The notes under the pieces: generated by a model
What the model saw: the letters and a program-made list of their open reading frames with translations, nothing else
Told to the model about the DNA's origin: nothing
Database searches by the model: none
Part shown: in pieces, positions 27,284 through 45,071 of the stretch
Layout: every line of letters starts with the position of its first letter
Numbering within the stretch: the first letter of the stretch is position 1
Position numbers and translations under genes: made by a program
Source of the DNA: a phage
NCBI GenBank assembly: GCA_014686905.1
Contig: GCA_014686905.1_4093.1
Length of the DNA: 64,000 nt
Strand: one strand, 5' to 3'

Positions 27284-27311
27284 TTGCACCGTACTGATAA
27301 AAGCGTATAAT
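27284..27311 (+). promoter_or_regulatory. sigma70-like early-type promoter (TTGCAC, 16-bp spacer, TATAAT), representative of about 35 similar promoters in 27.3-45 kb
   Basis: TACTTGCA(A/C)...GCGTATAATGTTTTACATC recurs before most small genes in this region. Confidence 0.6.
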
Positions 27312-27325
27312 GTTTTACATCGAGA

Positions 27326-27342
27326 GCGGGAACACTTCCCGC
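27326..27342 (+). promoter_or_regulatory. conserved 5' leader stem-loop (GCGGGAA-CAC-TTCCCGC), representative of about 25 instances
   Basis: Stem-loop sits a few nt after the predicted start site (...TTTTACATC) and 10-20 nt before the SD; stem sequence varies between copies with compensatory changes. Confidence 0.55.
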
Positions 27343-27366
27343 TACACTTTAAGAGAGATTAATACG

Positions 27367-27729
27367 ATGGCAACTCAAATCACCAAAATTATTGCTAACC
27401 TGGTTAACTTCCGCGACGAGATGAAAGATCTTCCGGCGGCGACGGTTAAAACTCACATTGACGCATACCGCGAACTGATTAAAATGCTGCCGCTTAAGCG
27501 TGAACAATACGCCGCTACCGTGATGCTTGATGCGATGATCCATAAGATGATCGCCAGTGATTTGACGATGGTTTATCAGTATATGGGCGAAAATTTCGCG
27601 GTGTGTAGTAAGCCAGTACCAGGGATGGCAACAACTGAGGAATTGCACGGCTTAAACTTAAAACAAGATGCATGGGATAATATGCCTCGTTTCCTGGTAT
27701 GGGCTGACAGTGGCAAAATTTACAAATAA
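27367..27729 (+). CDS. hypothetical early protein
   Basis: Start moved to MATQITKI after SD AGAGAG (track ORF began inside promoter/leader). Confidence 0.6.
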   Translation: MATQITKIIANLVNFRDEMKDLPAATVKTHIDAYRELIKMLPLKREQYAATVMLDAMIHKMIASDLTMVYQYMGENFAVCSKPVPGMATTEELHGLNLKQDAWDNMPRFLVWADSGKIYK

Positions 27730-27824
27730 GTTTAATAAAGTACTTGCAAACTATGTTTAATGGCGTATAATGTTTTACATCAGGTGGGGAATAGTTCCCC
27801 ACTATATAAGAGGATTAAAAAAAA

Positions 27825-28064
27825 ATGGCTAAATCAAAAATGTTCTTAGGTCACAAAAACAAAACTCATTGGAATGTAAGCCTGTGGATTAATAACGATG
27901 AGGGATTGTATCGGTTGGCCCTGGACTTTATTGCCGCCAATACTAATCGCAATGATGCGGCCCGTCATATGATGTTATTTTTAGAACAGACTGGACAAGA
28001 TAAAACACCGGACGGATTCAAATATAGCACTACTGCGATCCGTGCGGCGATGGTTGGAATGTAA
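27825..28064 (+). CDS. hypothetical early protein
   Basis: Promoter plus leader hairpin GGTGGGGAATAGTTCCCCACT upstream; SD AGAGGA. Confidence 0.6.
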   Translation: MAKSKMFLGHKNKTHWNVSLWINNDEGLYRLALDFIAANTNRNDAARHMMLFLEQTGQDKTPDGFKYSTTAIRAAMVGM

Positions 28065-28150
28065 TAGAATTTATTTAAAGTACTATCATTTTTTTGCGAT
28101 AGTACTTTATAATAGTGTTTTATTCATACACCAACGATAAGGGCAACAGC

Positions 28151-28417
28151 ATGAATATTAAGTATTTTGCGACGCGTGAACAAGCTCGGATCGCCGCACG
28201 CCAGGACGGGGCAACGTTTAAAGATATGGGAGCGGGATCGGCAAGTGGTGAACGTTGGGCCATTGTAAAGCGTAGTACGGCCAGATCATTACAGTACTGG
28301 TTAGCGGCCTTAAAAAGTCCCGATAGTGTATCGCGTCGAGTGGTAGAAATAAAGCTCGACCGAAAGGGCAACCGCGTGACCGTGTACCGTACTAAAAAGA
28401 TTGCAGTACTTGAATAA
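28151..28417 (+). CDS. hypothetical early protein; paralog of 39568-39963
   Basis: MNIKYFATREQARIAARQDGATFKDMG...DRKGNRVTVYRTKK parallels MITKFYATREAARIVAREEGAAFKDMG...DRKGNRVTVYSKRR. Confidence 0.6.
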   Translation: MNIKYFATREQARIAARQDGATFKDMGAGSASGERWAIVKRSTARSLQYWLAALKSPDSVSRRVVEIKLDRKGNRVTVYRTKKIAVLE

Positions 28418-28504
28418 AAAGTACTTGCAAACTATGTTTAAAGGCGTATAATGTTTTACATCGAGAGCGGGAACTCTTCCCGCCTATAACCTGGAGTAAT
28501 AAAA

Positions 28505-28735
28505 ATGACTAATATGTATATGACTGAAGTTAAAACCGTAAAAGATACTACCACGAATAAAACTACTTACTTACAGCGGATCTGTGGTGTATGGCAACGT
28601 ATCAGCAAATCAAAGTACTTTAAATTAACATCATATGCAAACCGTTCTGATTCATTCAGTACTGAAATAAAAGGTAATAAAGTACACCAATACGGCACTT
28701 ATTATTATTACAGCCTGGACGCGATTGCAGTATAA
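28505..28735 (+). CDS. hypothetical early protein
   Basis: Promoter plus leader hairpin GCGGGAACTCTTCCCGCC upstream; SD GGAG. Confidence 0.55.
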   Translation: MTNMYMTEVKTVKDTTTNKTTYLQRICGVWQRISKSKYFKLTSYANRSDSFSTEIKGNKVHQYGTYYYYSLDAIAV

Positions 28736-28984
28736 GCAGTTTACAAATCTTTACAATTGCCGGTATTGACTTATTTTGTCAGTACTGGCATAATGTATTC
28801 ATTGGCAGATAAGCCGTAGCCCATAGGGTGCGGGAGTGTATCTATAGAAAAATTAGTTTAGTATAGTTACAATTGTGCACCCGGTGGGTTAGCTGTTGTC
28901 ATGGGGTATATTATGCCAGTACTTGATAATGCTGTCAATACTTTTTTTTACTATCCAGTACAGAAAACTATTTTTAAAAAGTAC

Positions 28985-29012
28985 TTGCAAACTATGTTTA
29001 AAGGCGTATAAT
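28985..29012 (+). promoter_or_regulatory. early-type promoter upstream of structured leader element
   Basis: TTGCAA, 16-bp spacer, TATAAT. Confidence 0.55.
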
Positions 29013-29018
29013 GTTTTA

Positions 29019-29096
29019 CATCAGGACGGGGAACGAAATAAGTAACTTCCCGTTAAGTAGCCCAGGAGTAAGGCACACGAAAAACTCCCCTGATAA
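29019..29096 (+). ncRNA. candidate small structured RNA / leader element between tandem promoters (copy 1)
   Basis: About 78 nt starting CAGGACGGGGAACG..., internal complementarity ACGGGGAA/TTCCCGT; near-identical copy at 38373-38450; no ORF. Confidence 0.3.
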
Positions 29097-29162
29097 AATA
29101 GTTTGACAAATGTTTTTAAAAGCGTATAATACTTACATCAACTACTGAATGAGGGTTATAAA

Positions 29163-29774
29163 ATGAAAACTATCACTACTACTACTTTCGTTATGGATTT
29201 TTCTGAATTGAACGCAGAACAAAAAACGTCAGCTATCGAACTGGTTCGGGAACGTGAAAAAAACTCAAACGACAATTATTTTTCTGAAAGTGAAATTGAA
29301 TACTATAAAGAAACAGTACTACCGGAATATGGCATTAATGACGCTGAAATACAATTCAGTGGTTTTTGGTCCCAGGGTGACGGTGCATCAATCAGTACTG
29401 ACCACGTTGACGCAGTGAAGTTTTTACGCAAGGTTAGAGCGTTAACTAAGTATCGCTCAATCCGTCACCTGCTGAATGAAGATGATTTGGCGATGAGTGT
29501 AAAGCGTTCTCACTCCCACTACTCGCATGAGAATACTGTAAGCGGGTACATTGAATCGGCTTACACTGATTTAACCGCAAAACAAGAAACGTTAGTTAAT
29601 GAGCTTGAGGAACTACTCACTGATACTATTCGTGAATTGTCCCGTAAGTTGTACCGTGATTTAGAGAATGCATATGAGGATCAATTCACTACTGAAAACA
29701 TTACGGCACTGATTGAGGGTAACGAATATCAATTCAATGTTATTGATGGCGTAGTAGAATCAATCGAATATTAA
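29163..29774 (+). CDS. hypothetical acidic protein
   Basis: 203-aa ORF; SD GAGGG; second promoter TTGACA...TATAAT at about 29103-29130. Confidence 0.65.
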   Translation: MKTITTTTFVMDFSELNAEQKTSAIELVREREKNSNDNYFSESEIEYYKETVLPEYGINDAEIQFSGFWSQGDGASISTDHVDAVKFLRKVRALTKYRSIRHLLNEDDLAMSVKRSHSHYSHENTVSGYIESAYTDLTAKQETLVNELEELLTDTIRELSRKLYRDLENAYEDQFTTENITALIEGNEYQFNVIDGVVESIEY

Positions 29775-29866
29775 TTCAAAAAGTACTGGACACTAAGCAA
29801 TAAAGGCGTATAATACTTTATATCGAGAGCGGGAATAGTTCCCGCTACTAATGAGGAATACTACAA

Positions 29867-30031
29867 ATGAATACTTTTACCTTCGCTCAATTGAACGCCC
29901 TGGATGTATTGTCTGATGCTTTGCGGGATGCAACTGAAAGCGGTTTATTTGACAATGTTGACATTCACCCTGATGTAATTAATAATTTTTGTGATGCTAT
30001 CGCAGAAGTACTGGAAGATCTAAAAAAATAA
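29867..30031 (+). CDS. hypothetical small protein (54 aa)
   Basis: Promoter plus leader hairpin GCGGGAATAGTTCCCGC then SD GAGGAA; hand-translated. Confidence 0.45.
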   Translation: MNTFTFAQLNALDVLSDALRDATESGLFDNVDIHPDVINNFCDAIAEVLEDLKK

Positions 30032-30119
30032 TAGAAAGTACTTGCAATTAGTTTTTAGTACTGTATAATAGTTTACATAGAGGGGAGAAATGGTTCTCCC
30101 TGGTAATGAGGAAAATAAA

Positions 30120-30341
30120 ATGGCTAATATCACTACTCTTTCTCAACTGGAAGCACTGGTTAAATCTATGCGGGAACATGCAGACAATATCGGCGTAAAA
30201 GATCCAGCCGTTTGCTTCTGCGACGAAATGAATGATGATACACTGGTAATAGCAGAAGTACAAGATATTTCTAACTATTCATCGCGTTACACTGGCGGCG
30301 TAGCAAATAAAGGTGACTTCTGTTTATACCTTACCAAATAA
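30120..30341 (+). CDS. hypothetical early protein
   Basis: Start moved to MANITTLSQ after SD GAGGAA; leader hairpin upstream. Confidence 0.55.
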   Translation: MANITTLSQLEALVKSMREHADNIGVKDPAVCFCDEMNDDTLVIAEVQDISNYSSRYTGGVANKGDFCLYLTK

Positions 30342-30346
30342 CAACG

Positions 30347-30376
30347 CGGGGAGATAATAACTCCCCGTTACTTTTT
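30347..30376 (+). terminator. intrinsic terminator-like hairpin
   Basis: CGGGGAG-ATAATAA-CTCCCCG followed by T-rich tract. Confidence 0.5.
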
Positions 30377-30585
30377 CAGTACTGAATCATTTAATAGACG
30401 GATCTCGGCACCCTGTGGGTTAGTGACTGTATCGTCTTTATGTAGTAATTATGCCAGTACTGGATGCAGTTGTCAACAATTATTTTTCAAATACTTTTTA
30501 TTAAAATACTTGCTATTAGTTTTTAAACGCGTATAATGTTTTGCATAGGGGGAGCGGTTCCCCCTGGTAACTAAGGAATAAGAAA

Positions 30586-30819
30586 ATGCTTGAACAAATC
30601 AAATCAACGTCTGCTAATGTAACGGGAACGGTATCACACTTTATTGGTGATGAATCGCGGGGCGTTCCCTATTGTGCTGTACATGTAAACACTGAGGGTA
30701 ACTACTGGTTTACGGTTTACGGATCATATTCATTTGGACGGCCAGGGCATCAAAAAATTCTGGATAAAGTACAACCAACGGGTAAAAATATCACTGCCGA
30801 AATGTTTTATAAAAACTAA
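30586..30819 (+). CDS. hypothetical early protein
   Basis: Promoter, leader hairpin GGGGGAGCGGTTCCCCC, SD AAGGAA. Confidence 0.6.
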   Translation: MLEQIKSTSANVTGTVSHFIGDESRGVPYCAVHVNTEGNYWFTVYGSYSFGRPGHQKILDKVQPTGKNITAEMFYKN

Positions 30820-30906
30820 TAAAATACTTGATAATAGTTTTTAGTACTGTATAATATTTTACATAGCACGGGGGAGCGGTTCCCCCTGGTAACTAAGGAT
30901 AATCAA

Positions 30907-31206
30907 ATGAAAATTGCAATCATCGCCCTGGCTTTATCTGTTTCCTCTTTCTCTGTTAATGCGTCGTTAGATGTACCTAGTGAAAAATTCATTCAGTGCA
31001 CCGTAGCGATGACCGATGAAAGTACTGGCGAGATTGTTTTAAAGGATTTAGAGATCCAGCCAGAAGCATTTAAAAACGGCCCGTTCCATGAAGAAGACGA
31101 AAACGGTAGCACAACAATTTATTATGATGCAAGTACTAAACGCGGTTCGGTCACTGTAATGGATACAGAGAAAGTAACACACACAGGAGTAATTAACTGT
31201 TTATAA
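30907..31206 (+). CDS. secreted/periplasmic small protein (signal peptide)
   Basis: N-terminus MKIAIIALALSVSSFSVNA-SLD has n/h/c regions and AxA-like cleavage site. Confidence 0.6.
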   Translation: MKIAIIALALSVSSFSVNASLDVPSEKFIQCTVAMTDESTGEIVLKDLEIQPEAFKNGPFHEEDENGSTTIYYDASTKRGSVTVMDTEKVTHTGVINCL

Positions 31207-31212
31207 ATCACT

Positions 31213-31240
31213 AGCCCACTCATACAGTGGGCTTTTTTAT
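31213..31240 (+). terminator. intrinsic terminator
   Basis: AGCCCACT-CATAC-AGTGGGCT followed by TTTTTT. Confidence 0.7.
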
Positions 31241-31434
31241 TTTTGTAGTACTGCATACTTTGAAAATAGTTTTAAGAAAGTAGTTGACATTACCGCAGAA
31301 AAGCGTAGAATGTATTACATCAAGACGGGGAGCACTAAGTAGACCGCCAGTAAGTCGAACGAAAAACTGGACACGTCGAGAAAACTTTGATACACTATCT
31401 AACGTAAACTAAACTTTAATTGAGGAATTATATA

Positions 31435-31917
31435 ATGGCTAATGTAAAATCATTCATCAAAGCACTGGTAGCAAATGAAACTAACGTAGCGGCAGAGATC
31501 CTGGCAGAACTGGATAACGATACCATGAAAGCAGTACGCAACAATTTTAACATTGCGTACAGTGAAGCTAAAGAACTGCAAGCCAAAAAGGTAGCAGAAC
31601 TGGAAGAACAGAAAAAAGCCCGTGAAGCAGAACTACAAGCAACAATTGAAAGTATCCAGTCGGCGGTGTCTGGATTGGATCTGGAAGTGGTTGTTGAAAT
31701 GGCACATAAAGCCCTGGCGGTTAAGTACGGTGAAGATAAGCCGGAATCTAAGCCTAAAAAATGGATTCAGGAACGCGTAGCGGTAGTACTTGATAACGGT
31801 GAAGAACATTTGATTCCTGTACGCGGTAACTGCATTGCGGTAGTACTGGACGCTATCAAAGAAAGCGGTATGACTCGCGAGGAATGGATCGAAGCTCATC
31901 GCAAAGTTGAAGCATAA
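31435..31917 (+). CDS. hypothetical protein (Lys/Glu/Ala-rich, probably helical)
   Basis: Start moved to MANVKSF after SD GAGGAA; long 5' leader. Confidence 0.6.
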   Translation: MANVKSFIKALVANETNVAAEILAELDNDTMKAVRNNFNIAYSEAKELQAKKVAELEEQKKAREAELQATIESIQSAVSGLDLEVVVEMAHKALAVKYGEDKPESKPKKWIQERVAVVLDNGEEHLIPVRGNCIAVVLDAIKESGMTREEWIEAHRKVEA

Positions 31918-31937
31918 CAATTAAAGTACTGAATCAA

Positions 31938-31966
31938 TAGCCCACCTTAAACAGTGGGCTTTTTTG
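31938..31966 (+). terminator. intrinsic terminator
   Basis: AGCCCACC-TTAAA-CAGTGGGCT followed by TTTTTT. Confidence 0.65.
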
Positions 31967-32201
31967 TGTCTATAGTATTCCAGTCCACTAGCACCGCCTA
32001 GAATCGATTCTAACGCATTAAACTGATTATCTGATACATCGCCCTAGCTGGTGGCGTTAAGGTCGTTAGAAAGCGATTGAGAGTGTTTAAAGTATTTTGC
32101 AAAAAGTAATAAAAAGTACTTGCATGATTAAGAGATTAGCGTATAATGTTTTACATCGAAAGGGGAAACGGTTCTCCTTCCAAATCAAAGGAATCAAAAC
32201 A

Positions 32202-32429
32202 ATGGCTATTATCATTACTCGCGTATCTGGTACTACTGGCAATTCTTCTACTGTTGCAGTCATTACTAACAAGGCAGGTGCGGAATTGCAAAATGCAATG
32301 AATACCTGGGCCGTTAATGAGTTCGGTCAGTGGGCAAGTGTAGCATACATTGAAACCTATCAAGTGCCGACCATTAGTTTAACGGATCTTGGTGTGGAAC
32401 GTATCCTTTGCTTGGATGAATTAAATTAA
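32202..32429 (+). CDS. hypothetical early protein
   Basis: Start moved to MAIIITRVSG after SD AAGGAA; promoter plus leader hairpin upstream. Confidence 0.55.
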   Translation: MAIIITRVSGTTGNSSTVAVITNKAGAELQNAMNTWAVNEFGQWASVAYIETYQVPTISLTDLGVERILCLDELN

Positions 32430-32514
32430 AAAAGTACTTGCAAAGTAAATCGAATAAAGTATAATACATTACATCAAGGGGAGAAATGATTCTCCCCACT
32501 ACAAGGAAACTAAT

Positions 32515-32658
32515 ATGAAAACTTGTCAATGTGGTAAAAAATCTATTACTGGTTTAAAGCGGGGCGTTGCTCTTTGCCAGTACCATTATAATTTACAAGT
32601 ATGGGGTAAAGAATGGGCCGACCAGGTGGAAGCAATTAAGAAAGCAAAAAGTAAGTAA
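32515..32658 (+). CDS. small Cys-containing protein (47 aa)
   Basis: Promoter plus leader hairpin GGGGAGAAATGATTCTCCCC; SD AAGGAA; hand-translated. Confidence 0.4.
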   Translation: MKTCQCGKKSITGLKRGVALCQYHYNLQVWGKEWADQVEAIKKAKSK

Positions 32659-32670
32659 AAATATTATCAC

Positions 32671-32708
32671 AGTACTATTGACATAGTTTGATAGTACTGG
32701 CATAATAG
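32671..32708 (+). promoter_or_regulatory. promoter module class 2 with flanking inverted repeat (AGTACTAT-TGACATAGTTTG-ATAGTACT, CATAAT), copy 1 of 3
   Basis: TTGACA, 17-bp spacer, CATAAT; near-identical modules at 35408-35446 and 43114-43150. Confidence 0.55.
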
Positions 32709-32747
32709 ATTTTATCAAGACAACATATTAATTTAAGGAATACTAAA

Positions 32748-33071
32748 ATGGCTAAAACTATCATTAACACCGTTTCCCTGGCTGCAATCCGTGCAATCAA
32801 TGTTGACGGTAAACGTTGGACTGATTCATATGGCAATACTTATCATTCTTGTCATGTAAGCGTCGAACTGGATAACGGTTTGAATGTTCTGGCGGTTGAA
32901 TCATTTACTTATGGCTATGAAGATGCATATCAACAAACGGCGTTAGATCTATTAAAGGAATCAGTAGACGGGCTTAATACTGATGAAACCTCCCTTACTC
33001 GTTTGTGCAATGATCTTAATATCCCGTTGCATTGTACTGTACAGAATGTTAAACGCAAAAAAGATCTTTAA
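32748..33071 (+). CDS. hypothetical protein; paralog of 39149-39472
   Basis: Shared motifs RWTDSxGNTYHSC, TFTYGY, VKRKKD. Confidence 0.65.
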   Translation: MAKTIINTVSLAAIRAINVDGKRWTDSYGNTYHSCHVSVELDNGLNVLAVESFTYGYEDAYQQTALDLLKESVDGLNTDETSLTRLCNDLNIPLHCTVQNVKRKKDL

Positions 33072-33151
33072 TTAGCTTTACTTTATGCAGATACTTTGAT
33101 ATAGTGTCTGCATAGGGGAAAGAAATTAAATTAACTTAAGAGGATCGTATA

Positions 33152-33421
33152 ATGAAAAATATCAGTACTTTAATCGATGCAGGTACACATGTTCGGCGGT
33201 CTATGGTTGCAACCAGTACTACAAAACAAGTAGCGAGCGGTTATCTTGTATTTGTGCACGATGGTAAACTCCTGGAACGTTCAATCAATTTTGATGTTAA
33301 AAACAATTGCCGTTTTATTATCTTTAAGCGTGAACAATATAAAATTGATTTACCAGCAAAGCCCATTAGCGGGGCGTACAACGTGCAATCATTGTTTGAG
33401 CGTCAACCTTACACCTATTAA
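33152..33421 (+). CDS. hypothetical early protein
   Basis: SD AAGAGGA upstream. Confidence 0.55.
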   Translation: MKNISTLIDAGTHVRRSMVATSTTKQVASGYLVFVHDGKLLERSINFDVKNNCRFIIFKREQYKIDLPAKPISGAYNVQSLFERQPYTY

Positions 33422-33472
33422 TCAAAACATCGTTAGCGGTCGATTTAGGCCGCTTGTATTGGGGATTATACC

Positions 33473-33643
33473 ATGAACGTTAATCAAGTACTGAATGAGA
33501 TCGAAAGCATCATTAAACCAATGAAACGCATTGATGCTATGTTAACACCGGAAGAATGCCGCCTTTATGAGCGTTACAGTGTGGAACAAGCCCAGGAAAT
33601 GGCCCGTATCCGTCCGGTTGCCAGTACTGATAAGGCGGCGTAA
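33473..33643 (+). CDS. hypothetical small protein (56 aa)
   Basis: Hand-translated; stop overlaps next start (TAATATG). Confidence 0.45.
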   Translation: MNVNQVLNEIESIIKPMKRIDAMLTPEECRLYERYSVEQAQEMARIRPVASTDKAA

Positions 33644-33644
33644 T

Positions 33645-33854
33645 ATGCTTACTGTACAGGATAAGATCGACATCTTAAAGGTTAATATGTATGTGATTGA
33701 TGCCGTACCTGGTAAAGTATTTGCATACGATGATTCTAATCGCAGTCCGTTTTATTGCAGTCATGTAGTTGGATACGTGCCGTTGGCGTATGTTATAGAA
33801 AGAGTGGTTGATGCAGCATACAAACATTTTTTAGAAAATAATACTTGCAATTAG
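33645..33854 (+). CDS. hypothetical small protein
   Basis: Start moved to MLTVQDKIDIL; translationally coupled to upstream ORF. Confidence 0.5.
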   Translation: MLTVQDKIDILKVNMYVIDAVPGKVFAYDDSNRSPFYCSHVVGYVPLAYVIERVVDAAYKHFLENNTCN

Positions 33855-33924
33855 TTTTCAGTACTGTATAATGATTTACATCGAGAGCGGGAATAGTTCC
33901 CGCCTCACTTTTAAGGAATATGAA

Positions 33925-38250: not shown

Positions 38251-38372
38251 CGCATAGAAACAAATCAGCCCACAGGGTGCATAAATGTATCTATTGTTTG
38301 CTGGTGGCTAGTACTGAAAACTATTTTTAAAAAAGTACTTGCATTGTACTTAGAATCAAGTATAATGTTTTA

Positions 38373-38450
38373 CATCAGGACGGGGAACGAAACAAGTAAC
38401 CCCGTTAAGTAGTCCAGGAGTAAGACATAAGAAAACCTCCCCTGATAAAA
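38373..38450 (+). ncRNA. candidate small structured RNA / leader element between tandem promoters (copy 2)
   Basis: Near-identical to 29019-29096; bracketed by two promoters. Confidence 0.3.
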
Positions 38451-38515
38451 TAGTTTGACAATAGAAAGTAAACGAGTATAATACTTACATCAACCACTGA
38501 TAAGGAAACATTAAA

Positions 38516-38791
38516 ATGCGGATTCTACTGACAGCTAACGAAATCGAACAAGTACTGACTACTAACCTGGAAGACTGGAAACGTGAAGCAGATATCCAGG
38601 CGGTTCAACGGCTTAACGATGAGTTAACGCCGGATGACTTAAGCAAGATTGTAGATCCTCAATTCTACGAAGATATCCACGACACCGCGTTAAGCGTCGA
38701 GGATGTACTAGATAAGCACTACATTGATATTGATTTGCAGGTTTACGGTCGTAAAAACTTTATCACTATTCACGACATTTACAATAATTAA
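38516..38791 (+). CDS. hypothetical acidic protein
   Basis: SD AAGGAAAC; 91-aa ORF. Confidence 0.6.
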   Translation: MRILLTANEIEQVLTTNLEDWKREADIQAVQRLNDELTPDDLSKIVDPQFYEDIHDTALSVEDVLDKHYIDIDLQVYGRKNFITIHDIYNN

Positions 38792-38877
38792 GTATTGACA
38801 AAGTATCTTAGTACTGTATAATAGTTTACATCGAGAGGGGGAATGGTTCCCCTCCTAACAAAGAGAGAGAAATAAAA

Positions 38878-39060
38878 ATGGCTAAATGCACTATCTGTAA
38901 GAAAGAAATCGTATTAGTTCCAAGTGCCCGTGAACGTGCCGCTCGGTTCGGTGGCAAACCGTCAGACTATACAAAAATGTTTACTGTCCATGCAGCTTGC
39001 CAGGTAGCAAAACGTTCACAAGAAAGCGTAGAATTAATGCGTAAACTTTCCAAAAAATAA
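38878..39060 (+). CDS. hypothetical small basic protein
   Basis: TTGACA promoter, leader hairpin GAGGGGGAATGGTTCCCCTCC, SD AGAGAGAGA. Confidence 0.55.
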   Translation: MAKCTICKKEIVLVPSARERAARFGGKPSDYTKMFTVHAACQVAKRSQESVELMRKLSKK

Positions 39061-39148
39061 GTATTGACAAAGTATCTTAGTACTGTATAATAGTTTACAT
39101 CAAGTGAGGGGAAACGGTTCCCCTCCTAACAAAGAGAGAGAAATAAAA

Positions 39149-39472
39149 ATGGCTATGATCCTTGCCCAGAAAGTAGAACTGAAAATTGTAACCTCCTTTG
39201 ACATTAAAGTTAATCGGTGGACTGATTCACACGGCAATACTTACCACTCTTGCTACGTGTCTGCGTTAATTGGTGATCGTTGGGAAGACCTGGGACATGA
39301 AACCTTTACATACGGTTACGGCACACAAGGCGAATACACGGGCTTGGAGATCATTAAAGAAACCGTTATAGGTTTCAACCCGAAAGAAAAAGTTATTCAC
39401 CGCATCGAAAAAGAGATTAACAAAGAAATAACAGTTCGATACAACGATGTAAAACGTAAGAAAGACATGTAA
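39149..39472 (+). CDS. hypothetical protein; paralog of 32748-33071
   Basis: Start moved to MAMILAQK; shared RWTDSHGNTYHSC...TFTYGY...VKRKKD; promoter plus leader duplicated from the 38878 unit. Confidence 0.65.
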   Translation: MAMILAQKVELKIVTSFDIKVNRWTDSHGNTYHSCYVSALIGDRWEDLGHETFTYGYGTQGEYTGLEIIKETVIGFNPKEKVIHRIEKEINKEITVRYNDVKRKKDM

Positions 39473-39567
39473 TAGAATCCATTTAAAGTACTATTTGACA
39501 TTGCCCAGATAGTACTTTATAATAGACTCTAACTTGTAGTACTAACTCAACTAATAGGATGTATACC

Positions 39568-39963
39568 ATGATTACTAAATTCTACGCTACCCGTGAAGCT
39601 GCCCGTATTGTTGCACGCGAGGAAGGAGCAGCATTTAAAGACATGGGCAAAGATGCACCGAAAGGTCAACGCTGGGCCGTACAGTTCAAAGAAATCTCTG
39701 ATATCGTGAATTCACCGGAGCCAGTACTAACAGCAGCAGAACTAAAACGAGCGGATTTACTGGCGGCAGTACTTAACGCACAAGATGAATTTATCGCTGA
39801 TTCTGATATCAAAGTACAGACAAACCATACCGCTTGGACTCACGCGGATCACCTGGCAAACCTTAAGCGTCCAAGTGAACTGGTACGCAACCAGAAAGAG
39901 ATCCGACACGACCGTAAGGGTAATCGTGTAACAGTATACAGTAAACGCCGCCAGGTTATCTAA
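39568..39963 (+). CDS. hypothetical protein; paralog of 28151-28417
   Basis: MITKFYATREAARIV...DRKGNRVTVYSKRR. Confidence 0.6.
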   Translation: MITKFYATREAARIVAREEGAAFKDMGKDAPKGQRWAVQFKEISDIVNSPEPVLTAAELKRADLLAAVLNAQDEFIADSDIKVQTNHTAWTHADHLANLKRPSELVRNQKEIRHDRKGNRVTVYSKRRQVI

Positions 39964-39985
39964 TAACTTGCAGTACTAACAACAC

Positions 39986-40010
39986 GGCGGGATCAGTTCC
40001 CGCCTTTTTT
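39986..40010 (+). terminator. intrinsic terminator
   Basis: GGCGGGA-TCAGT-TCCCGCC followed by TTTTTT. Confidence 0.7.
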
Positions 40011-40025
40011 ATAGGATAAACTAAA

Positions 40026-40280
40026 ATGATTAAGGTACAACTATCTAAAGATAATATCTTGCGGGTACACTATAAAGCACCACAGAGAATCATCACAAAG
40101 GCCGTACAGCTTGCTAATGAGTTTATTAATGGTAACCTATTACCAAGGAAGTTAAGCAACGGAAAACTGCGTGTAATCGATGTAGACACTAACAACAGAA
40201 TAGTAATAGAGAACACAGGAAAGATAAACCTTTATGAACATCAACAATATAATAAGAAAATAAAACTAATATCACGTTGA
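40026..40280 (+). CDS. hypothetical protein
   Basis: 84-aa ORF; SD-like AGGATAAAC. Confidence 0.5.
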   Translation: MIKVQLSKDNILRVHYKAPQRIITKAVQLANEFINGNLLPRKLSNGKLRVIDVDTNNRIVIENTGKINLYEHQQYNKKIKLISR

Positions 40281-40333
40281 CAGTACTCAATTGTTTTAGT
40301 ATTATGTACACATACCAACACGGGAGAAACAAA

Positions 40334-40552
40334 ATGAAATTATCTAAAATCGAAAAGAAAACTATTGATGAAGCAGTTAAGCACGGTTATACCTTTCGTA
40401 ATGATTCACATTTTACCAATTTTCAACAAGGCCAAAGGACTATTAAAAAACTAATTGACAAAGGTTTATTAGTTAAAGTAGATAACGGTAACGGCATTGA
40501 GTATCAGCCAACCCAAGACGCATTATCTTTAAAGAAATATGCAATTATCTAA
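40334..40552 (+). CDS. hypothetical protein
   Basis: Start moved to MKLSKIEKK after SD GGGAGAAAC; promoter TTGACAGTACTCAATTGTTTTAGTATTATGTACA duplicated before next gene. Confidence 0.5.
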   Translation: MKLSKIEKKTIDEAVKHGYTFRNDSHFTNFQQGQRTIKKLIDKGLLVKVDNGNGIEYQPTQDALSLKKYAII

Positions 40553-40609
40553 TTGACAGTACTCAAATGTTTTAGTACTATATGTACATACCAACACGGG
40601 GGAAACAAA

Positions 40610-40852
40610 ATGATTACTTTAGAAAAACGTATCAAAGAAACTACATCGCTGGTGGAACTGTTAACAGTACTGAAATGTAAAACAACACCATTCAGCACGC
40701 CGGACTTTATTAATATGGTTGATGTTAATGGTCGCTATCGTATCACGGTCGAACAAGGAGCGGCGAAAGTATTCAGTACTAAAAACACTAAGGAAGTGAT
40801 CCACGCCGTTAATGTTAAAAAAGTAGTTGCAATTGATAGTAAAGTACTGTAA
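40610..40852 (+). CDS. hypothetical protein
   Basis: Start moved to MITLEKRIKE after SD GGGGGAAAC; duplicated promoter block. Confidence 0.5.
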   Translation: MITLEKRIKETTSLVELLTVLKCKTTPFSTPDFINMVDVNGRYRITVEQGAAKVFSTKNTKEVIHAVNVKKVVAIDSKVL

Positions 40853-40883
40853 TATAGTTTCATTAACTCAAGGAGAACATGCA

Positions 40884-41468
40884 ATGCGTAATTATACTAA
40901 ATTCATCCGTACCCTGTCAGAAATGGAAACTAACAAAGAGATCCTTTCAGCTTGTCGGTTAGCTGGACTGGAGATCATCGGGGCGGGATCTTCCCGTATA
41001 GTTTTCGCTTTAAATGATCGGTTAGTGATTAAGGTCGCCAATTGTGATGCGGGTGTAGAACAAAATGAAACTGAATGTAAGGTATGGAATTTTTTAGACT
41101 ATGACCGCCCTCAATTGAAACAGTACTTTGCTAAAGTGCATATGCATTTAAGCGATCCTGATAATATGTTTATCGTTATGGATCGGTTGAGTACTGCAAG
41201 CAAAGGCAGTGTAAAGCACGTTAACGCGTGCAACGAATTAAAGTACAATATTAAACGTAATGCAATTGAACGCCAGCACCGCTTTGCTGATGCACTACAA
41301 CACGTTGATGATACACTGTCAACACTAACGATAAGAGATATCAGAAAACAGAATATCGGCCAGGATCGCAACGGCCTTATTAAAGTACTTGATTACGGTT
41401 TAACCCGCAATATCTGGAATCAGTACTATAAAAAGCGGGATGTAAAAGCCGTAACTATAACACGATAA
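40884..41468 (+). CDS. minimal protein-kinase-like protein
   Basis: Gly-rich loop IIGAGSSRIVF, VIKVA (VAIK-like Lys), catalytic-loop-like RDIRKQN, DFG-like DYG, in kinase order. Confidence 0.55.
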   Translation: MRNYTKFIRTLSEMETNKEILSACRLAGLEIIGAGSSRIVFALNDRLVIKVANCDAGVEQNETECKVWNFLDYDRPQLKQYFAKVHMHLSDPDNMFIVMDRLSTASKGSVKHVNACNELKYNIKRNAIERQHRFADALQHVDDTLSTLTIRDIRKQNIGQDRNGLIKVLDYGLTRNIWNQYYKKRDVKAVTITR

Positions 41469-41479
41469 AAAAGATTAAA

Positions 41480-41517
41480 AAAGGGATTGACTTCGGTCAG
41501 TCCCTTTGCTATTATAT
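41480..41517 (+). terminator. composite hairpin terminator plus promoter
   Basis: GGGATTGAC-TTCG-GTCAGTCCC, TTTGC, TATTAT. Confidence 0.55.
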
Positions 41518-41691
41518 ATTCATTGAGAGATAGCTCACTGACCCACAGGGTGCATAAATGTATCTATTATATAAGTATTCAGTACTGAAAACTATTTTTA
41601 AAAAAGTACTTGCATTGTACTTAGAATCAAGTATAATGTTTTATATCGAGAGGGGGAAATGGTTCTCCCTCAAAGAATAAGGAATAAAATC

Positions 41692-41913
41692 ATGACTACA
41701 ATGACTTGCATTTACGCTTCCAATCTTCTGAATGATGCGGCCTTTAATGTTGATTCAGAATATCAATGTTATCGGGATGAAAATAAAAAAGTTTTTGTAG
41801 TTGATAATAATGGTTTCCATATTGAATTACAATCCGGTTTCACTGGTGTTGATGGTAAATCAGTATGGGGCGTACAGGATGATAACGGTACATATCATTT
41901 TAAACGTAATTAA
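41692..41913 (+). CDS. hypothetical early protein
   Basis: Start moved to MTTMTCIYAS after SD AAGGAA; leader hairpin AGGGGGAAATGGTTCTCCCT. Confidence 0.55.
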   Translation: MTTMTCIYASNLLNDAAFNVDSEYQCYRDENKKVFVVDNNGFHIELQSGFTGVDGKSVWGVQDDNGTYHFKRN

Positions 41914-41997
41914 GTATTGACAAAGTATCTTAGTACTGTATAATAGTTTACATCAAGGGGAGAATAGTTCTCCCCGATACTAAAAGGAAACAAAATT

Positions 41998-42270
41998 ATG
42001 TCCAGCTACTCCGCTACTATGATCATTAAAGATATGAACGGTAATCCTACTTCTGCTGGTGGATCATTTGGAAACATTAATTTAGATGGTCGGTTATCCA
42101 TGCAATCAGCCATCGATGCAGCGAAAGAAGTTTTTAAGAATGAATGTACTGTTAGTAAGCTGGATTATATGGGATTCGCTATCGAGAAAACTAATCGTTT
42201 TGTGAACTACAAAAATCCACTGATGATTGATACTAACCTGAAAGCTAACGAAGTGGGGTACTTATTATGA
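41998..42270 (+). CDS. hypothetical early protein
   Basis: TTGACA promoter, leader hairpin GGGGAGAATAGTTCTCCCC, SD AAGGAAAC. Confidence 0.6.
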   Translation: MSSYSATMIIKDMNGNPTSAGGSFGNINLDGRLSMQSAIDAAKEVFKNECTVSKLDYMGFAIEKTNRFVNYKNPLMIDTNLKANEVGYLL

Positions 42271-42458
42271 CAGTAGAAGAAGTTAAAAAAGTACTGGCAG
42301 TACTACGCTATCATAATCATTGCAAGGTGAAGAATGATCCTGATTATGTTGATTCATCCCTGGAGGAAGACACATTAAACGCAATAAGCCATATGCAAAC
42401 ATTAGCAAAGCGTATGACCGAAAAGAATAGACCGGACTATATCGGAAATAAAATTTAA
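42267..42458 (+). CDS. hypothetical small protein
   Basis: ATGA overlap with upstream gene. Confidence 0.5.
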   Translation: MTVEEVKKVLAVLRYHNHCKVKNDPDYVDSSLEEDTLNAISHMQTLAKRMTEKNRPDYIGNKI

Positions 42459-42544
42459 AAAGTACTTGCATTGTAGTTAGATTAACGTATAATGTTTTAC
42501 ATAGAGCGGGGGAATAGTTCTCCCGCCAGTCCAGGAGATACACC

Positions 42545-42808
42545 ATGAACACTATCGAAATCACTATCAATGCACACGTATACGACAACGTAGTACTGCA
42601 AACTACTATGACCGCTAATGATACCAGTACTTTGCGGAATACTGTTATTAGTGCCGTATGTGCCGCTATCGGTGATGTCGCCCTGGAAAATGCAGAACAC
42701 ATCAACGACGGTTTCACTATGTGCAAACGTGATAACGCAAAACATATCATCGTAGAAGGTTACGGCGGTGTAGAATATAATCTTTATATGAAAAAAGTAC
42801 TTGCATAA
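42545..42808 (+). CDS. hypothetical early protein
   Basis: Promoter, leader hairpin GCGGGGGAATAGTTCTCCCGCC, SD AGGAGA. Confidence 0.6.
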   Translation: MNTIEITINAHVYDNVVLQTTMTANDTSTLRNTVISAVCAAIGDVALENAEHINDGFTMCKRDNAKHIIVEGYGGVEYNLYMKKVLA

Positions 42809-42875
42809 TAACTAAAACAAAGTATAATGTTTTGCATAGGGGGAGATATCCTCCCCCACTAAAAGGAGTAATAAA

Positions 42876-43100
42876 ATGGCTAACTTTGATGAACTGATGC
42901 GGGAAGTAGCTAACCTGGCAGAAGAGAAAAAATCATTCGATTCTATCTATAACACCGCTCACCGTGATTCAGTACTGGCATGTACTCAGGATCAAAAAGA
43001 TGAACTAATCGCCACATATCATGAAGCATGGAAGTACTACCGCCAATGGGAGAAAGAAGAAAGCGAGTCTACCATCAACGGCATCAATAATCTAATCTAA
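42876..43100 (+). CDS. hypothetical early protein
   Basis: Promoter, leader hairpin GGGGGAGATATCCTCCCCC, SD AAGGAG. Confidence 0.6.
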   Translation: MANFDELMREVANLAEEKKSFDSIYNTAHRDSVLACTQDQKDELIATYHEAWKYYRQWEKEESESTINGINNLI

Positions 43101-43113
43101 AAGTTTTATTTCA

Positions 43114-43150
43114 GTACTATTGACATAGCTTGATAGTACTGATGTAATAA
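43114..43150 (+). promoter_or_regulatory. promoter module class 2 with flanking inverted repeat, copy 3 of 3
   Basis: AGTACTATTGACATAGCTTGATAGTACTGATGTAATAAC. Confidence 0.55.
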
Positions 43151-43176
43151 CTTTACTAACTACAAGGGGAAACATA

Positions 43177-43434
43177 ATGGAACAGTTCACACAATATCGG
43201 GTAAATCCTCAAGCTATGGCCTACGTAGAAGACCATAAAACGTTACCAGTACTAACACCAATTAAAGGCCATATCTATCGTGCAATGTCATGGAATACGG
43301 CCCAGGATGGATATACTACCGCTGGCGTGGGTATGTATTGCGGGAATGGTGAATGGTTTGATCCAAATAATCCGGTAGCCATTGACAGTACTGAAAAAAT
43401 GAAATGGGCCGACTACATCGAAGATATTTCATAA
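43177..43434 (+). CDS. hypothetical early protein
   Basis: SD AAGGGGAAAC; 85-aa ORF. Confidence 0.55.
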   Translation: MEQFTQYRVNPQAMAYVEDHKTLPVLTPIKGHIYRAMSWNTAQDGYTTAGVGMYCGNGEWFDPNNPVAIDSTEKMKWADYIEDIS

Positions 43435-43523
43435 AACTATTTGACAGTACTAACCAGTAATGTATAATGTTTTACATAGAGCGGGGGAATAGTTCTCCCG
43501 CCAATAGTTTGGAGTAAAACATT

Positions 43524-43724
43524 ATGTCTATCGCTATCGCCCTGGTTGAAGTACTGAAAGAAGCTAAAGCCAACCTTATCGATGTACAGATTAAGGAATT
43601 GCAAAATGGTTTAATCGGCTGTACTTGTACCGCTGGTGGAGCGGCAGACTATCGGGAATTCGAATCACTTGAATCGATGGTCCGTTATCTTACCATGATC
43701 GTAGAAGATTGGAGAATCATCTAA
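43524..43724 (+). CDS. hypothetical small protein
   Basis: Promoter, leader hairpin, SD GGAG. Confidence 0.55.
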   Translation: MSIAIALVEVLKEAKANLIDVQIKELQNGLIGCTCTAGGAADYREFESLESMVRYLTMIVEDWRII

Positions 43725-43737
43725 CAAAAAAGAATAA

Positions 43738-43777
43738 AAAAAGGGATTGACTCCGGTCAGTCCCTTTGCTATTATAT
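43738..43777 (+). terminator. composite hairpin terminator plus promoter
   Basis: GGGATTGAC-TCCG-GTCAGTCCC, TTTGC, TATTAT. Confidence 0.55.
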
Positions 43778-43969
43778 ACGCATAGACAAAAACTAGCCCA
43801 CTGGGTGCAGGAGTGTATCTAAAATATATAGTTAATAACGGTGAGTAACTATCTGCTGGTGGGGTGAAAACTATTAATAAAAAAGTATTGACAAAGTATA
43901 TCAGTACTGCAATAATGTATCTCGTAGGGCGGCAATGGTGCGACGGCCCACAAAGTTAGGAGATTCAAA

Positions 43970-44302
43970 ATGAGTACTTCAATCGCTATCGTTAAAGCTT
44001 TCATCCGTACCAATGTTTCATCTGTATTCATCGACGGTCTGGATCGGGAAGTAGAATACTCAATCATTATCGCACAGACTGCAAACGGTGCTCGGTATAT
44101 CCTTAATGATAGTGAAGCAAATCACTACTACTTCACTAAAGCCACTGGCTTTAAACGCATCGATGCTGATGTAGTATACGCTAAGATGAATAAGCTGGTA
44201 GACAAGATTAACGCGAAAGGTACTATCGATTTACAGTACTGGAACGAAACCTATCCAGAATATGGATCTCACCGTTACCTGAATCCAGGTATTAAAATGT
44301 AA
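43970..44302 (+). CDS. hypothetical early protein
   Basis: TTGACA promoter; SD AGGAGA. Confidence 0.6.
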   Translation: MSTSIAIVKAFIRTNVSSVFIDGLDREVEYSIIIAQTANGARYILNDSEANHYYFTKATGFKRIDADVVYAKMNKLVDKINAKGTIDLQYWNETYPEYGSHRYLNPGIKM

Positions 44303-44391
44303 AAAGTACTTGCATAGTACTTAGAATCAAGTATAATGTTTTACATAGAGAGGGGGAAATGGTTCTCCCTCCTAAATTAAGGAGTTTTATC

Positions 44392-44793
44392 ATGACCTTC
44401 TCAATCAATTCCTTCGCTGACGTTTTAGTACTGGCTCGGACTTTTGGTAAAGATGCACTGGAGTACGCTGTAAGTAATGGTACTATCCAACCGGAACAGT
44501 GCCGCATCATTGGAAACTGCAAACGTTGGGCGGTATCCAATACTATTGCACTGGAAAACTTCCACGATGGCAACAATGAATATTCTGTTGATGTAGTATT
44601 CGAAGCCGTTGATCTCGGCGGTATCTATAATACTAACCTGAATGATGTGCGTATCGTTCGCACGGGGTTCGGTGCTTATGATGTATCTATCCGTGAAGCT
44701 ATGGACACCGGATACATTAGCAAGGACTTACTTGCTCACATCATGCAGCTGTGTACGGAACGTAACGAAGCACGCACTATCTTAGGACTGTAA
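44392..44793 (+). CDS. hypothetical early protein
   Basis: Start moved to MTFSINSFADV after SD AAGGAG; promoter and leader hairpin duplicated from the 41692 unit. Confidence 0.6.
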   Translation: MTFSINSFADVLVLARTFGKDALEYAVSNGTIQPEQCRIIGNCKRWAVSNTIALENFHDGNNEYSVDVVFEAVDLGGIYNTNLNDVRIVRTGFGAYDVSIREAMDTGYISKDLLAHIMQLCTERNEARTILGL

Positions 44794-44817
44794 GCGTTAC
44801 ACATCACCAAACATCAT

Positions 44818-44840
44818 AGGCCGCCTTGTAGCGGCCTTAA
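44818..44840 (+). terminator. terminator-like hairpin
   Basis: AGGCCGC-CTTGTA-GCGGCCT; no clear T tract. Confidence 0.4.
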
Positions 44841-44861
44841 CTATATCAGGAGTACATACAC

Positions 44862-45071
44862 ATGATCTATACAGTATACAGCGTTCTAGGCACTATTGCA
44901 GGCGTACATGATAACGTCGATAGTGCTATGCGTACAGTACTGCAACAGGTTCCACTAAAGCCTAAGACCATTAAGCAGATGACAGCACGACTAACCAGGG
45001 CGACCGATGGCGTGGAAGTATGGCAGGACTACGGGGATACACAGATAATCGTTAGCGTAACGAAGGATTAA
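44862..45071 (+). CDS. hypothetical small protein
   Basis: SD AGGAG upstream; 69-aa ORF. Confidence 0.5.
   Translation: MIYTVYSVLGTIAGVHDNVDSAMRTVLQQVPLKPKTIKQMTARLTRATDGVEVWQDYGDTQIIVSVTKD

Follow-up and report, generated by a model that had tools for sequence, protein, structure and literature searches.

A 64,000-nt stretch of phage DNA (contig GCA_014686905.1_4093.1; hereafter the window, meaning the whole stretch analysed) carries on its plus strand, between 27,284 and 44,392, an array of short promoter cassettes in which a GC-rich hairpin lies between the predicted transcription start and the ATG of a small gene. Judged from its database matches, the window phage is a 121Q/PBECO4-type jumbo coliphage of the genus Asteriusvirus. 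Megablast of positions 27,000-45,000 matched 176 phage records, nearly all of them Escherichia jumbo phages of ~350-385 kb belonging to Asteriusvirus and including 121Q, PBECO4, G17 and fEgEco12. The best match was vB_Ec-M-J (OQ718158), with 94% identity; the matching stretch in that genome (positions 1,376-17,815, window position 27000 aligning to 1376) lies within an annotated 'Direct Terminal Repeats' feature (1-21,525). The whole array accordingly falls in a direct terminal repeat (DTR), the boundaries of which are approximate, as they were inferred by extrapolating alignments (Table 1). At the right end, the G17 record terminates at window position 45223 in the alignment, and extrapolating the DTR end of vB_Ec-M-J gives ~45222. 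DTRs of ~20-21 kb have been confirmed in fEgEco12 by PhageTerm and restriction mapping (PMC13070987), and the DTR of Sharanji was called by PhageTerm (PMC11895373). GC skew changes sign at ~26 kb, and genes lie on the minus strand to the left of the repeat and on the plus strand within it. The early region is patchily conserved among Asteriusvirus genomes, and no tRNAs were found in the window.

Promoters were listed as each TATAAT with a -35-like hexamer 16-18 nt upstream, which gave ~30 plus-strand promoters between 27.3 and 44.4 kb. Folding of the predicted leaders revealed one hairpin of -8 to -16 kcal/mol in 22 of these promoters. A covariance model (R1) built from the 22 hairpin units recovered all of them at 47-63 bits, and additionally detected two weaker long-form units, a unit at 37236 and a decayed unit at 31306 (units are referred to by the position of the -10 box). 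A scan with this model found no comparable unit elsewhere in the 64 kb on either strand. The census is therefore 22 full-scoring cassettes and a 23rd with a degenerate -10 box (TTATAG, 37236), all on the plus strand, while a longer structure of ~75 nt follows two further promoters (-10 at 29007 and 38361). Approximately six promoters of the array have no hairpin (-10 at 29125, 35708, 36819, 38477, 39518 and the degenerate 31306). Some of these represent a distinct 'ACTTAC-ATCAAC' type, with leaders that are short or unstructured; those at 36819 and 39518 are similar to the 35708 type. A preliminary description, made from the letters alone, had reported about 25 units with a 16-17 bp spacer. 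The array itself was borne out by the promoter listing, the folding and the covariance model that the description had proposed, which confined the full-scoring units to 27.3-44.4 kb of the plus strand, and the stem sequences quoted were correct; the count needed revision to 23 plus two long-form units, and every canonical unit has a 16-nt spacer. Strong short hairpins (at least 7 bp, at least 4 GC, loop of 3-5) numbered 33 on the plus strand compared with 2.9 ± 2.3 in shuffled sequence, and 20 of the 33 begin 10-30 nt after a listed -10 box. Because of this excess over shuffles and the coupling to -10 boxes, chance is excluded as the origin of the array.

The upstream part of the cassette is A-rich and mostly contains AGTACT, either overlapping the -35 hexamer (AAAGTAC-TTGCAA) or abutting the -10 box (TAGTACTG-TATAAT). 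All 22 full-scoring units have A-runs, TTGACA or TTGCAA, 16 nt and TATAAT, i.e., a near-consensus sigma-70 promoter, followed by a 7-nt discriminator (GTTTTAC or AGTTTAC) and then ATC, ATA or ATG, often with GAGAG. The predicted transcription start (+1) was placed at the A eight nt after TATAAT because the layout matches that of the T7 A1 promoter (GAGTATTGACT…GATACT, then TACAGCC, then ATCGAGAGGGA), for which RefSeq annotates the start at that A; all leader measurements use this +1, taken from T7 A1 and not from a mapped start. The leader is 38-50 nt long, with 1-6 unpaired nt (median 4) at the predicted 5' end of the window units. The GC-rich hairpin, of 6-9 bp and with purines in the 5' arm, reaches from about +2/+10 to +21/+30 and has a mean folding free energy (dG) of -13.1 kcal/mol; none of the 23 copies departs from this placement after the start. 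Between hairpin and ATG lie 13-23 nt that are A-rich and unstructured and contain a strong Shine-Dalgarno (SD) sequence; the tails after the stem are A-rich, their first 8 nt holding 1.5 T on average. The stems have GGGGAA/UUCCCC in common and differ outside this core: the pair below the G run is C:G, U:A, A:U or G:C depending on the unit, and the loop-proximal pairs are GAA/UUC, GAAA/UUUC, GAGAA/UUCUC or GAG/CUC. Loops vary freely (TAG, CGG, CAC, ATGG, ATGA, AAAC, ATATC). The downstream genes are small and mostly ORFans, and 7 of 10 larger products had no Pfam match. The few recognisable products, a DksA/TraR zinc finger, a GNAT acetyltransferase and a weak kinase-like match (Pfam), would suit a role in host takeover.

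Table 1. Features of the cassette array. Unit coordinates are from the promoter and fold listing and covariance model R1; starts are predicted; dG in kcal/mol.
Feature	Span	Strand	-35	-10	Start	Hairpin or leader	ATG	dG and remarks
Cassette 1	27284..27369	+	TTGCAC	27306	27319	27325-27343 (AGCGGGAA-CAC-TTCCCGCT)	27367	-12.5
Cassette 2	27744..27827	+		27766	27779	27783-27803 (GGTGGGGAA-TAG-TTCCCCACT)	27825	-14.2
Cassette 3	28425..28507	+		28447	28460	28467-28483 (GCGGGAA-CTC-TTCCCGC)	28505	-12.0
Long-form unit A	28985..29165	+		29007	29020	~75-nt structured leader 29020-29094		-19.3, z -1.2; 29.6 bits
Long-form unit A, second promoter		+	29103	29125		hairpin-less	29163	
Cassette 4	29787..29869	+	TGGACA	29809	29822	29828-29846 (AGCGGGAA-TAG-TTCCCGCT)	29867	-13.2
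Cassette 5	30042..30122	+		30064	30077	30082-30101 (GGGGAGAA-ATGG-TTCTCCCT)	30120	-11.8
Cassette 6	30510..30588	+		30532	30545	30546-30566 (TAGGGGGA-GCGGT-TCCCCCTG)	30586	-13.6
Cassette 7	30828..30909	+		30850	30863	30870-30886 (GGGGGA-GCGGT-TCCCCC)	30907	-13.8
Cassette 8	32120..32204	+		32142	32155	32160-32179 (AAGGGGAA-ACGG-TTCTCCTT, one G.U)	32202	-8.2
Cassette 9	32438..32517	+		32460	32473	32478-32497 (GGGGAGAA-ATGA-TTCTCCCC)	32515	-13.9, z -2.97
Cassette 10	33845..33922	+		33867	33880	33887-33903 (GCGGGAA-TAG-TTCCCGC)	33920	-15.3; only unit flagged by terminator scan
Cassette 11	34075..34155	+		34097	34110	34115-34134 (GGGGAGAA-ATGA-TTCTCCCC)	34153	-13.9
Cassette 12	34667..34748	+		34689	34702	34708-34726 (AGGGGAAA-CGG-TTTCCCCT)	34746	-10.9
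Cassette 13	35101..35185	+	TTGACA	35123	35136	35141-35160 (GGGGAGAA-AAAC-TTCTCCCC)	35183	-14.1
Hairpin-less early promoter	35686..35760	+	TTGACA-16-TATAAT	35708		unstructured 37-nt leader	35758	0.0
Cassette 14	37214..37291	+	TTGCAT 37214	37236 (degenerate, TTATAG)	37249	37253-37271 (AGGGGAA-ACATC-TTCCCCT)	37289	-10.6; 19.8 bits
Cassette 15	37485..37564	+		37507	37520	37525-37544 (GGGGTGAA-ATGA-TTCTCCCC)	37562	-9.5 (-13.9 in orthologs); private U.U mismatch absent in orthologs
Long-form unit B	38339..38518	+		38361	38374	structured leader 38374-38446		-19.1, z -2.0; 25.9 bits
Long-form unit B, second promoter		+	38455	38477		hairpin-less	38516	
Cassette 16	38795..38880	+		38817	38830	38835-38854 (GAGGGGGA-ATGG-TTCCCCTC)	38878	-12.9
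Cassette 17	39064..39151	+		39086	39099	39106-39125 (GAGGGGAA-ACGG-TTCCCCTC)	39149	-14.5
Cassette 18	41610..41694	+		41632	41645	41650-41671 (GAGGGGGAA-ATGG-TTCTCCCTC)	41692	-14.2
Cassette 19	41917..42000	+		41939	41952	41957-41975 (GGGGAGAA-TAG-TTCTCCCC)	41998	-13.2
Cassette 20	42466..42547	+		42488	42501	42506-42526 (GCGGGGGAA-TAG-TTCTCCCGC)	42545	-14.4
Cassette 21	42801..42878	+		42823	42836	42839-42857 (GGGGGAG-ATATC-CTCCCCC)	42876	-15.0
Cassette 22	43441..43526	+		43463	43476	43481-43501 (GCGGGGGAA-TAG-TTCTCCCGC)	43524	-14.4
Cassette 23	44310..44394	+		44332	44345	44350-44371 (GAGGGGGAA-ATGG-TTCTCCCTC)	44392	-15.9
Direct terminal repeat, ~20 kb	~25625..45222	+					 	contains whole cassette array; from alignments to vB_Ec-M-J and G17; single copy in window

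The position of the hairpin at the 5' end of the early mRNAs, as claimed in the preliminary description, depends on the predicted start. The cassettes share with T7 A1 the -35 context (AGTATTGAC), a 7-nt discriminator and the first transcribed bases (ATCGAGAGGG; ATCGAGAG), and with this common geometry the hairpin very probably lies in the 5' leader of the cassette's own transcript. T7 A1 RNA likewise folds into a stable structure, from +2 (z -4.0), which is larger than the window hairpins and of other sequence. The T7 early promoters also sit at the genome end bearing the early genes, but as three promoters in tandem before one long early operon, compared with one per gene here. SPO1 and T5, which belong to phage lineages unrelated to the window phage, carry host-takeover or pre-early modules in long terminal repeats, with many small early genes whose function is unknown and very strong host-type promoters and ribosome sites; we know of no report of a conserved leader hairpin in these modules.

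The preliminary description had further argued from covariation that the hairpin is a selected RNA structure. On the model-fitted alignment, 87.3% of cells were paired compared with 84.7% in shuffles (0/500), and 40 double-change cells were counted compared with 19 in shuffles (0/500). The excess of double changes thus agreed with the claim, but the column-wise count was not decisive, with a partner slid by +1 scoring about equally. Since runs of G and C can slip, this count is ambiguous and was replaced by an alignment-free arm-swap test, in which each 5' half was folded with its own 3' half or with the 3' halves of other units. For the 20 distinct hairpins of the window, own arms gave -12.09 kcal/mol and permuted arms -9.03 ± 0.43 kcal/mol, and no permutation out of 5000 matched the own arms; when the set was widened to 52 distinct hairpins, taken from the window and four related loci, the values were -11.62 and -8.86 ± 0.24 kcal/mol (0/5000). 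The sense strand contains 25 G.U pairs across 48 distinct hairpins, and folding of the sense strand was better than that of the reverse complement in 25 hairpins, worse in 10 and equal in 13 (25 of 35 informative cases). In one ortholog series the G run and the C run are each shortened by one base, a compensatory change. With the hairpin also kept in a second jumbo genus, these results support selection on the stem-loop as a structure, as had been proposed. The arms are at the same time strongly polar (G-C 229 vs C-G 11; A-U 136 vs U-A 5): the 5' arm is almost always purine, almost always GGGG(A/G)(A/G)A, and its orientation is never flipped. The stems are therefore constrained by sequence or recent common descent as well as by pairing.

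The units were also compared with those of vB_Ec-M-J, 121Q, G17, Munch and A5-4, where genes with 75-100% identity over the first 90 coding nt were taken as the same gene. Leaders were identical in 18 of 69 ortholog pairs, and many others differed only in loop or tail bases. Orthologs with 91-100% identical 5' coding sequence were, however, also found behind different hairpin types or none. The 33867 unit has GCGGGAA/TTCCCGC and its ortholog GGGGAGAA/TTCTCCCC; the 42488 unit has GCGGGGGAA/…CCCGC and its ortholog, with 100% identical coding sequence, GAGGGGGAA/…CCCCTC. Ortholog leaders of the 32142 and 30850 units are hairpin-less or decayed, and the reverse direction was seen at 38477. Pairing is thus kept where stems differ between copies, as first described, but much of the variation reflects exchange of whole cassettes rather than gene-specific compensatory change. 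Of 55 BLAST homology-block ends between the window and three relatives, 30 fell in cassettes, which cover 16% of the region (binomial p = 6e-11; block ends are partly attracted into cassettes by cassette paralogy). These alignments uphold the view of gene exchange in modules that have cassettes at their borders.

Cassettes of this kind, which the preliminary description did not identify as a known type, have already been described in T4-type phages (RB49/phi1, PST/T4 and nt-1/KVP40) as promoter-early stem-loop (PeSL) cassettes (Arbiol et al. 2010, PMC2839356; Comeau et al. 2014, PMC4122927). A PeSL combines a strong sigma-70 promoter and an AT-rich region with a G(n)-loop-C(n) stem-loop, in which some pairs are G·T, and carries an SD sequence and an ATG; PeSLs are dense in ORFan-rich hyperplastic regions and at indel breakpoints, and their recombination yields mini-circles (PMC2839356, PMC4122927). 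All PeSL features that could be tested in the array are present except the stem-loop position. The two have in common a near-consensus sigma-70 promoter with an AT-rich upstream part, a G(n)...C(n) stem-loop with G.T pairs, and an SD sequence before the ATG of a small ORFan. In both, the elements are intergenic, densely repeated in a hyperplastic early region, and linked to insertions, deletions and replacements between close relatives. The RB49 hairpins GGGGAG...CTCCCC and GGGGAT...ATCCCC are of the same sequence family as the window hairpins, although model R1 had no match in 49 kb of RB49. The RB49 cassettes, read directly, have the layout TTGACA-GGGGATCGGTGATCCCC-TATAAT, with the hairpin within the -35/-10 spacer; in PST and nt-1 the stem-loop is upstream of the promoter, and in the window it follows the predicted start. 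In RB49, PST and nt-1 the stem-loop thus lies outside its own transcript and can therefore terminate upstream RNA. The hosts differ as well, the window array being located in the direct terminal repeat of a Rak2-like jumbo phage. On sequence grounds, the array belongs with the early cassettes of PeSL type, but occurs in a host lineage new for them and has its stem-loop shifted to the leader.

Blastn with one cassette gave 9-32 copies per genome among the Asteriusvirus records listed, weaker full-length matches in the Salmonella jumbo phages Munch, 7t3, SE_PL and PHA46, and single full-length matches in E. coli phages of ~140-150 kb, including A5-4 (Vequintavirinae). In Eneladusvirus phages the promoter part alone matched. 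Munch has both promoter types, and its hairpins, mostly ATA-GGGGGAA-ACATC-TTCCCCC, begin from +4. A pattern scan followed by the covariance model identified IMG/VR contigs of 109-366 kb with similar arrays and the hairpin in the leader position; other single IMG/VR pattern matches were rejected by the model. The family hence ranges over jumbo contigs of ~310-370 kb, one 109-kb contig and a few copies in E. coli phages of ~140-150 kb. In Escherichia phage A5-4 (~145 kb), three jumbo-type cassettes lie at 12,000-16,450, and one of them precedes a gene with 81% identity, in the first 90 nt, to the window gene at 32,515, which suggests transfer of cassette and gene modules between phage families. 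A tblastn search with the GNAT protein toward RaK2/GAP32-type phages matched only Asteriusvirus, one Shigella phage and one Klebsiella phage, and Rfam 15 gave no match at the gathering threshold in the whole window. No account of these leader hairpins turned up in the literature searched on Asteriusvirus, 121Q/PBECO4, RaK2, phAPEC6, Sharanji, fEgEco12, CBB and EJP2, that on CBB reporting only RpoD-like promoters with UP-like elements, and a literature search found no transcriptome for Asteriusvirus-type phages.

As to function, we favour, at a probability of roughly one half, a hairpin that is a self-contained leader element acting on the RNA of its own transcript, within PeSL-type modular cassettes. 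Such a hairpin would keep the A-rich ribosome-binding stretch free of pairing with upstream RNA, an insulation that would serve transcripts from the cassette's own promoter and read-through transcripts alike, and it might modestly slow decay from the 5' side. Any gene behind a cassette could then be expressed independent of context, and the conserved ~100-bp cassette would supply homology for gene-module exchange. The hairpins resemble the stabilisers of the ompA 5' untranslated region and the T7 gene 10 leader (GGGAGACC...GGUUUCCC) in being short GC-rich stem-loops near the mRNA 5' end and upstream of an open ribosome-binding region. Those stabilisers, however, start at most ~2 nt from the 5' end, while here the predicted 5' end usually keeps 3-5 nt unpaired. 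Antitermination signals form a second class of small RNA structure encoded right behind early promoters, with lambda nut boxB read via its conserved loop and HK022 put formed by two specific stem-loops. In the window the loops vary freely and the stem is single and simple, and a lambda-N-type or put-type antiterminator was rejected. The nuclease target and the pause or antitermination signal named in the preliminary description may nevertheless apply. A CsrA-type site was rejected too, as GGA is absent from the loops, and an intrinsic terminator was rejected on the basis of the 1.5 T in 8 nt after the stem and of a terminator scan passed by 1 of 23 units (33887-33903).

Several observations weigh against the favoured leader-element reading. 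In a set of 105 distinct units, drawn from the window and related jumbo-phage loci, the number of free 5' nt, counted from the inferred start, was 0-1 in 19, 3 in 34 and 4-6 in 52. The 5' tail and 3' flank pair no better than in swapped controls (-1.67 vs -1.67 kcal/mol), and RNase E is reported to bypass simple or orthogonal stem-loops while scanning (PMC9943677). Because of the free 5' nucleotides, the lack of selection for tail pairing and the reported RNase E bypass, the classical 5'-end-protecting role is weak, and the 'stabilising 5' cap hairpin' put forward initially fits poorly. The hairpin is moreover dispensable per gene, given the array promoters that lack it, the hairpin-less or degenerate 121Q orthologs and the reverse case. 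A purely structural role does not account for the purine/pyrimidine polarity of the arms. As all cassettes are homologous, their constant architecture does not amount to 23 independent cases, and the start site is inferred from the T7 A1 analogy. Finally, the sole experiment on this hairpin type, with RB49 PeSL211/210, was interpreted by its authors as termination or attenuation (PMC2839356).

That experiment leads to the strongest alternative, which we nevertheless regard as unlikely: an attenuator, terminator or 3'-end barrier against upstream transcription, which would limit read-through and protect the 3' end of the upstream message. The array has a strong promoter every ~500-700 bp and few canonical terminators between genes, and this is the function proposed for PeSL stem-loops. 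The RB49 PeSL211/210 stem-loop cut lacZ expression about as much as rrnB T1 (PMC2839356); its sequence is GGGGAT-CACGT-ATCCCC, without a U-tract, and the window hairpins fall in its sequence family. The G17 GenBank record, in addition, labels one such leader hairpin as an ARNOLD terminator. However, a hairpin after its own start would also reduce the output of its own cassette, and RB49, PST and nt-1 have the hairpin before or inside the promoter (PMC4122927). The A-rich, T-poor tails, with a single unit meeting a simple terminator definition, point the same way, but the missing U-tract is not decisive because the RB49 stem-loop that was tested also has none.

The conservation of stem sequence besides pairing, and the never-flipped orientation of the 5' arm, would be expected of a recognition tag on early RNAs, read by a phage-encoded or virion-delivered protein for coordinated shut-off or processing of the early class. 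Such a protein might act as a translational repressor, as a RegB-like endonuclease or as an RNA-polymerase-modifying factor. The core is kept across genera and is confined to one temporal and positional gene class. Against such a tag, the loops, usually the protein-reading surface of small hairpins, vary freely, several early promoters of the array have no hairpin, and no candidate protein was identified. Common descent may also underlie the arm polarity, as may a preference for an initial transcribed sequence rich in purines. Overall we consider the tag improbable, and hold the same view of its bolder form, in which the G-rich purine arm is a specific tag read by a phage factor, such as an RNA-binding repressor, a nuclease or an RNA-polymerase modifier loaded from the nascent RNA, to switch the terminal-repeat gene class off or on as a whole, and in which the tag also marks integron-like cassettes moving between Asteriusvirus, Munch-like jumbo phages and Vequintavirinae.

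A signal at the DNA level is less probable still, be it a site for a recombination or DNA-binding protein or an operator downstream of the start that shuts early promoters. Breakpoints concentrate in cassettes and whole cassettes are swapped, and a recombination protein binding GGGG...CCCC has been raised as a possibility (PMC2839356). The mirrored changes in the arms and the G.T rather than A.C oppositions nevertheless indicate a folded sense single strand and not two half-sites, and homologous recombination over the ~100-bp cassette suffices for the breakpoints. Stems of 6-9 bp are also short for cruciform extrusion. Least probable is a relic without present function, carried along by cassette duplication and homogenisation: the homology of all cassettes and the tolerance of hairpin loss or degeneration (units 31306 and 37507) would allow it, but at least five or six different pairing-preserving double changes (C:G/U:A/A:U/G:C at one position, GAA/UUC vs GAG/CUC, the paired G/C-run shortening) and the persistence of stability in two genera that no longer have alignable flanking DNA speak against it.

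Other repeated elements were observed in and around the array. The long-form leaders A and B are two copies of one longer structure (AUCAGGACGGGGAAC…CUCCCCUGAU) of ~-19 kcal/mol under standard cassette promoters, and could represent a small RNA or a tandem-promoter leader. The window contains 255 copies of the palindrome AGTACT compared with ~21 expected (11.8x), of which 126 fall in the terminal repeat (25,600-45,223; 19.8x, 6.4 per kb), in all three codon phases. AGTACT belongs to the cassettes (AAAGTAC-TTGCA; TAGTACTG-TATAAT) and is in ~17-21x excess in the early regions of vB_Ec-M-J, 121Q, G17, Munch and two IMG/VR jumbo contigs; A5-4 shows no excess (0.9x), and RB49 lacks the palindrome altogether where 15.7 copies would be expected. 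A phage protein may bind or modify the DNA at this palindrome, and a literature search found no paper pairing 'AGTACT' with 'jumbo'. A second plus-strand repeat of ~130 nt lies at 34,525-34,700, 38,199-38,372, 41,467-41,643 and 43,727-43,900, with related hairpins at 1,161 and 2,575. It contains a 12-bp hairpin, AAAGGGA-TTGACT-CCGG-TCAGTCCCTTT, that includes a -35 hexamer, then GC-TATTAT, and after TATTAT a conserved stretch without open reading frame (ORF) (…AGCCCACAGGGTGCATAAGTGTATCTA…) that runs into the next cassette. By its sequence this repeat is a terminator/promoter composite of the RB49 PeSL type, and it may represent a small RNA or a different promoter class.

At the left DTR end (25,400-27,300), ~1.7 kb are without a convincing ORF. 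A consensus promoter at 26,009-26,036 (plus strand) would give a transcript opening with a 40-nt hairpin (the first 87 nt fold at -24.3 kcal/mol); promoter and leader are conserved in vB_Ec-M-J and 121Q. A divergent promoter lies at 27,007-26,980 on the minus strand, and a promoterless cassette-type hairpin at 26,585. Just beyond the inferred right DTR end (45,291-47,189, plus strand) the gene style switches to an operon-like arrangement of small ORFs with overlapping stop and start codons, and cassettes are absent. On the minus strand at ~10,500-21,100, a series of paralogous genes encodes products that begin MLPF(G/A/T/V)RM…KYGN. Upstream of most of these genes lies a terminator-like hairpin, GCCAGTAC-nnn-GTACTGGC, that has a T-run and is followed by a T4-late-promoter-like ATTAAATATAG-TATAAT and a strong SD sequence, an arrangement that makes up a different, late-type repeated cassette.

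For the jumbo coliphages, which are widely isolated for therapy, these results provide a defined early or host-takeover regulon of ~30 promoters confined to the terminal repeat, which went unmentioned in the jumbo-coliphage genome literature searched. They extend the PeSL idea, with cassettes as joints for the shuffling of small accessory genes, from T4-like to Rak2-like jumbo phages, and indicate that cassette and gene modules are also common to an unrelated phage subfamily. The spacer hairpin of RB49 and the leader hairpin described here form a natural experiment: position should matter if the hairpin is a terminator, and would matter differently if it serves RNA stability, translation or as a recombination site. 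As compact, strong and apparently context-independent expression units, the cassettes could also serve engineering.

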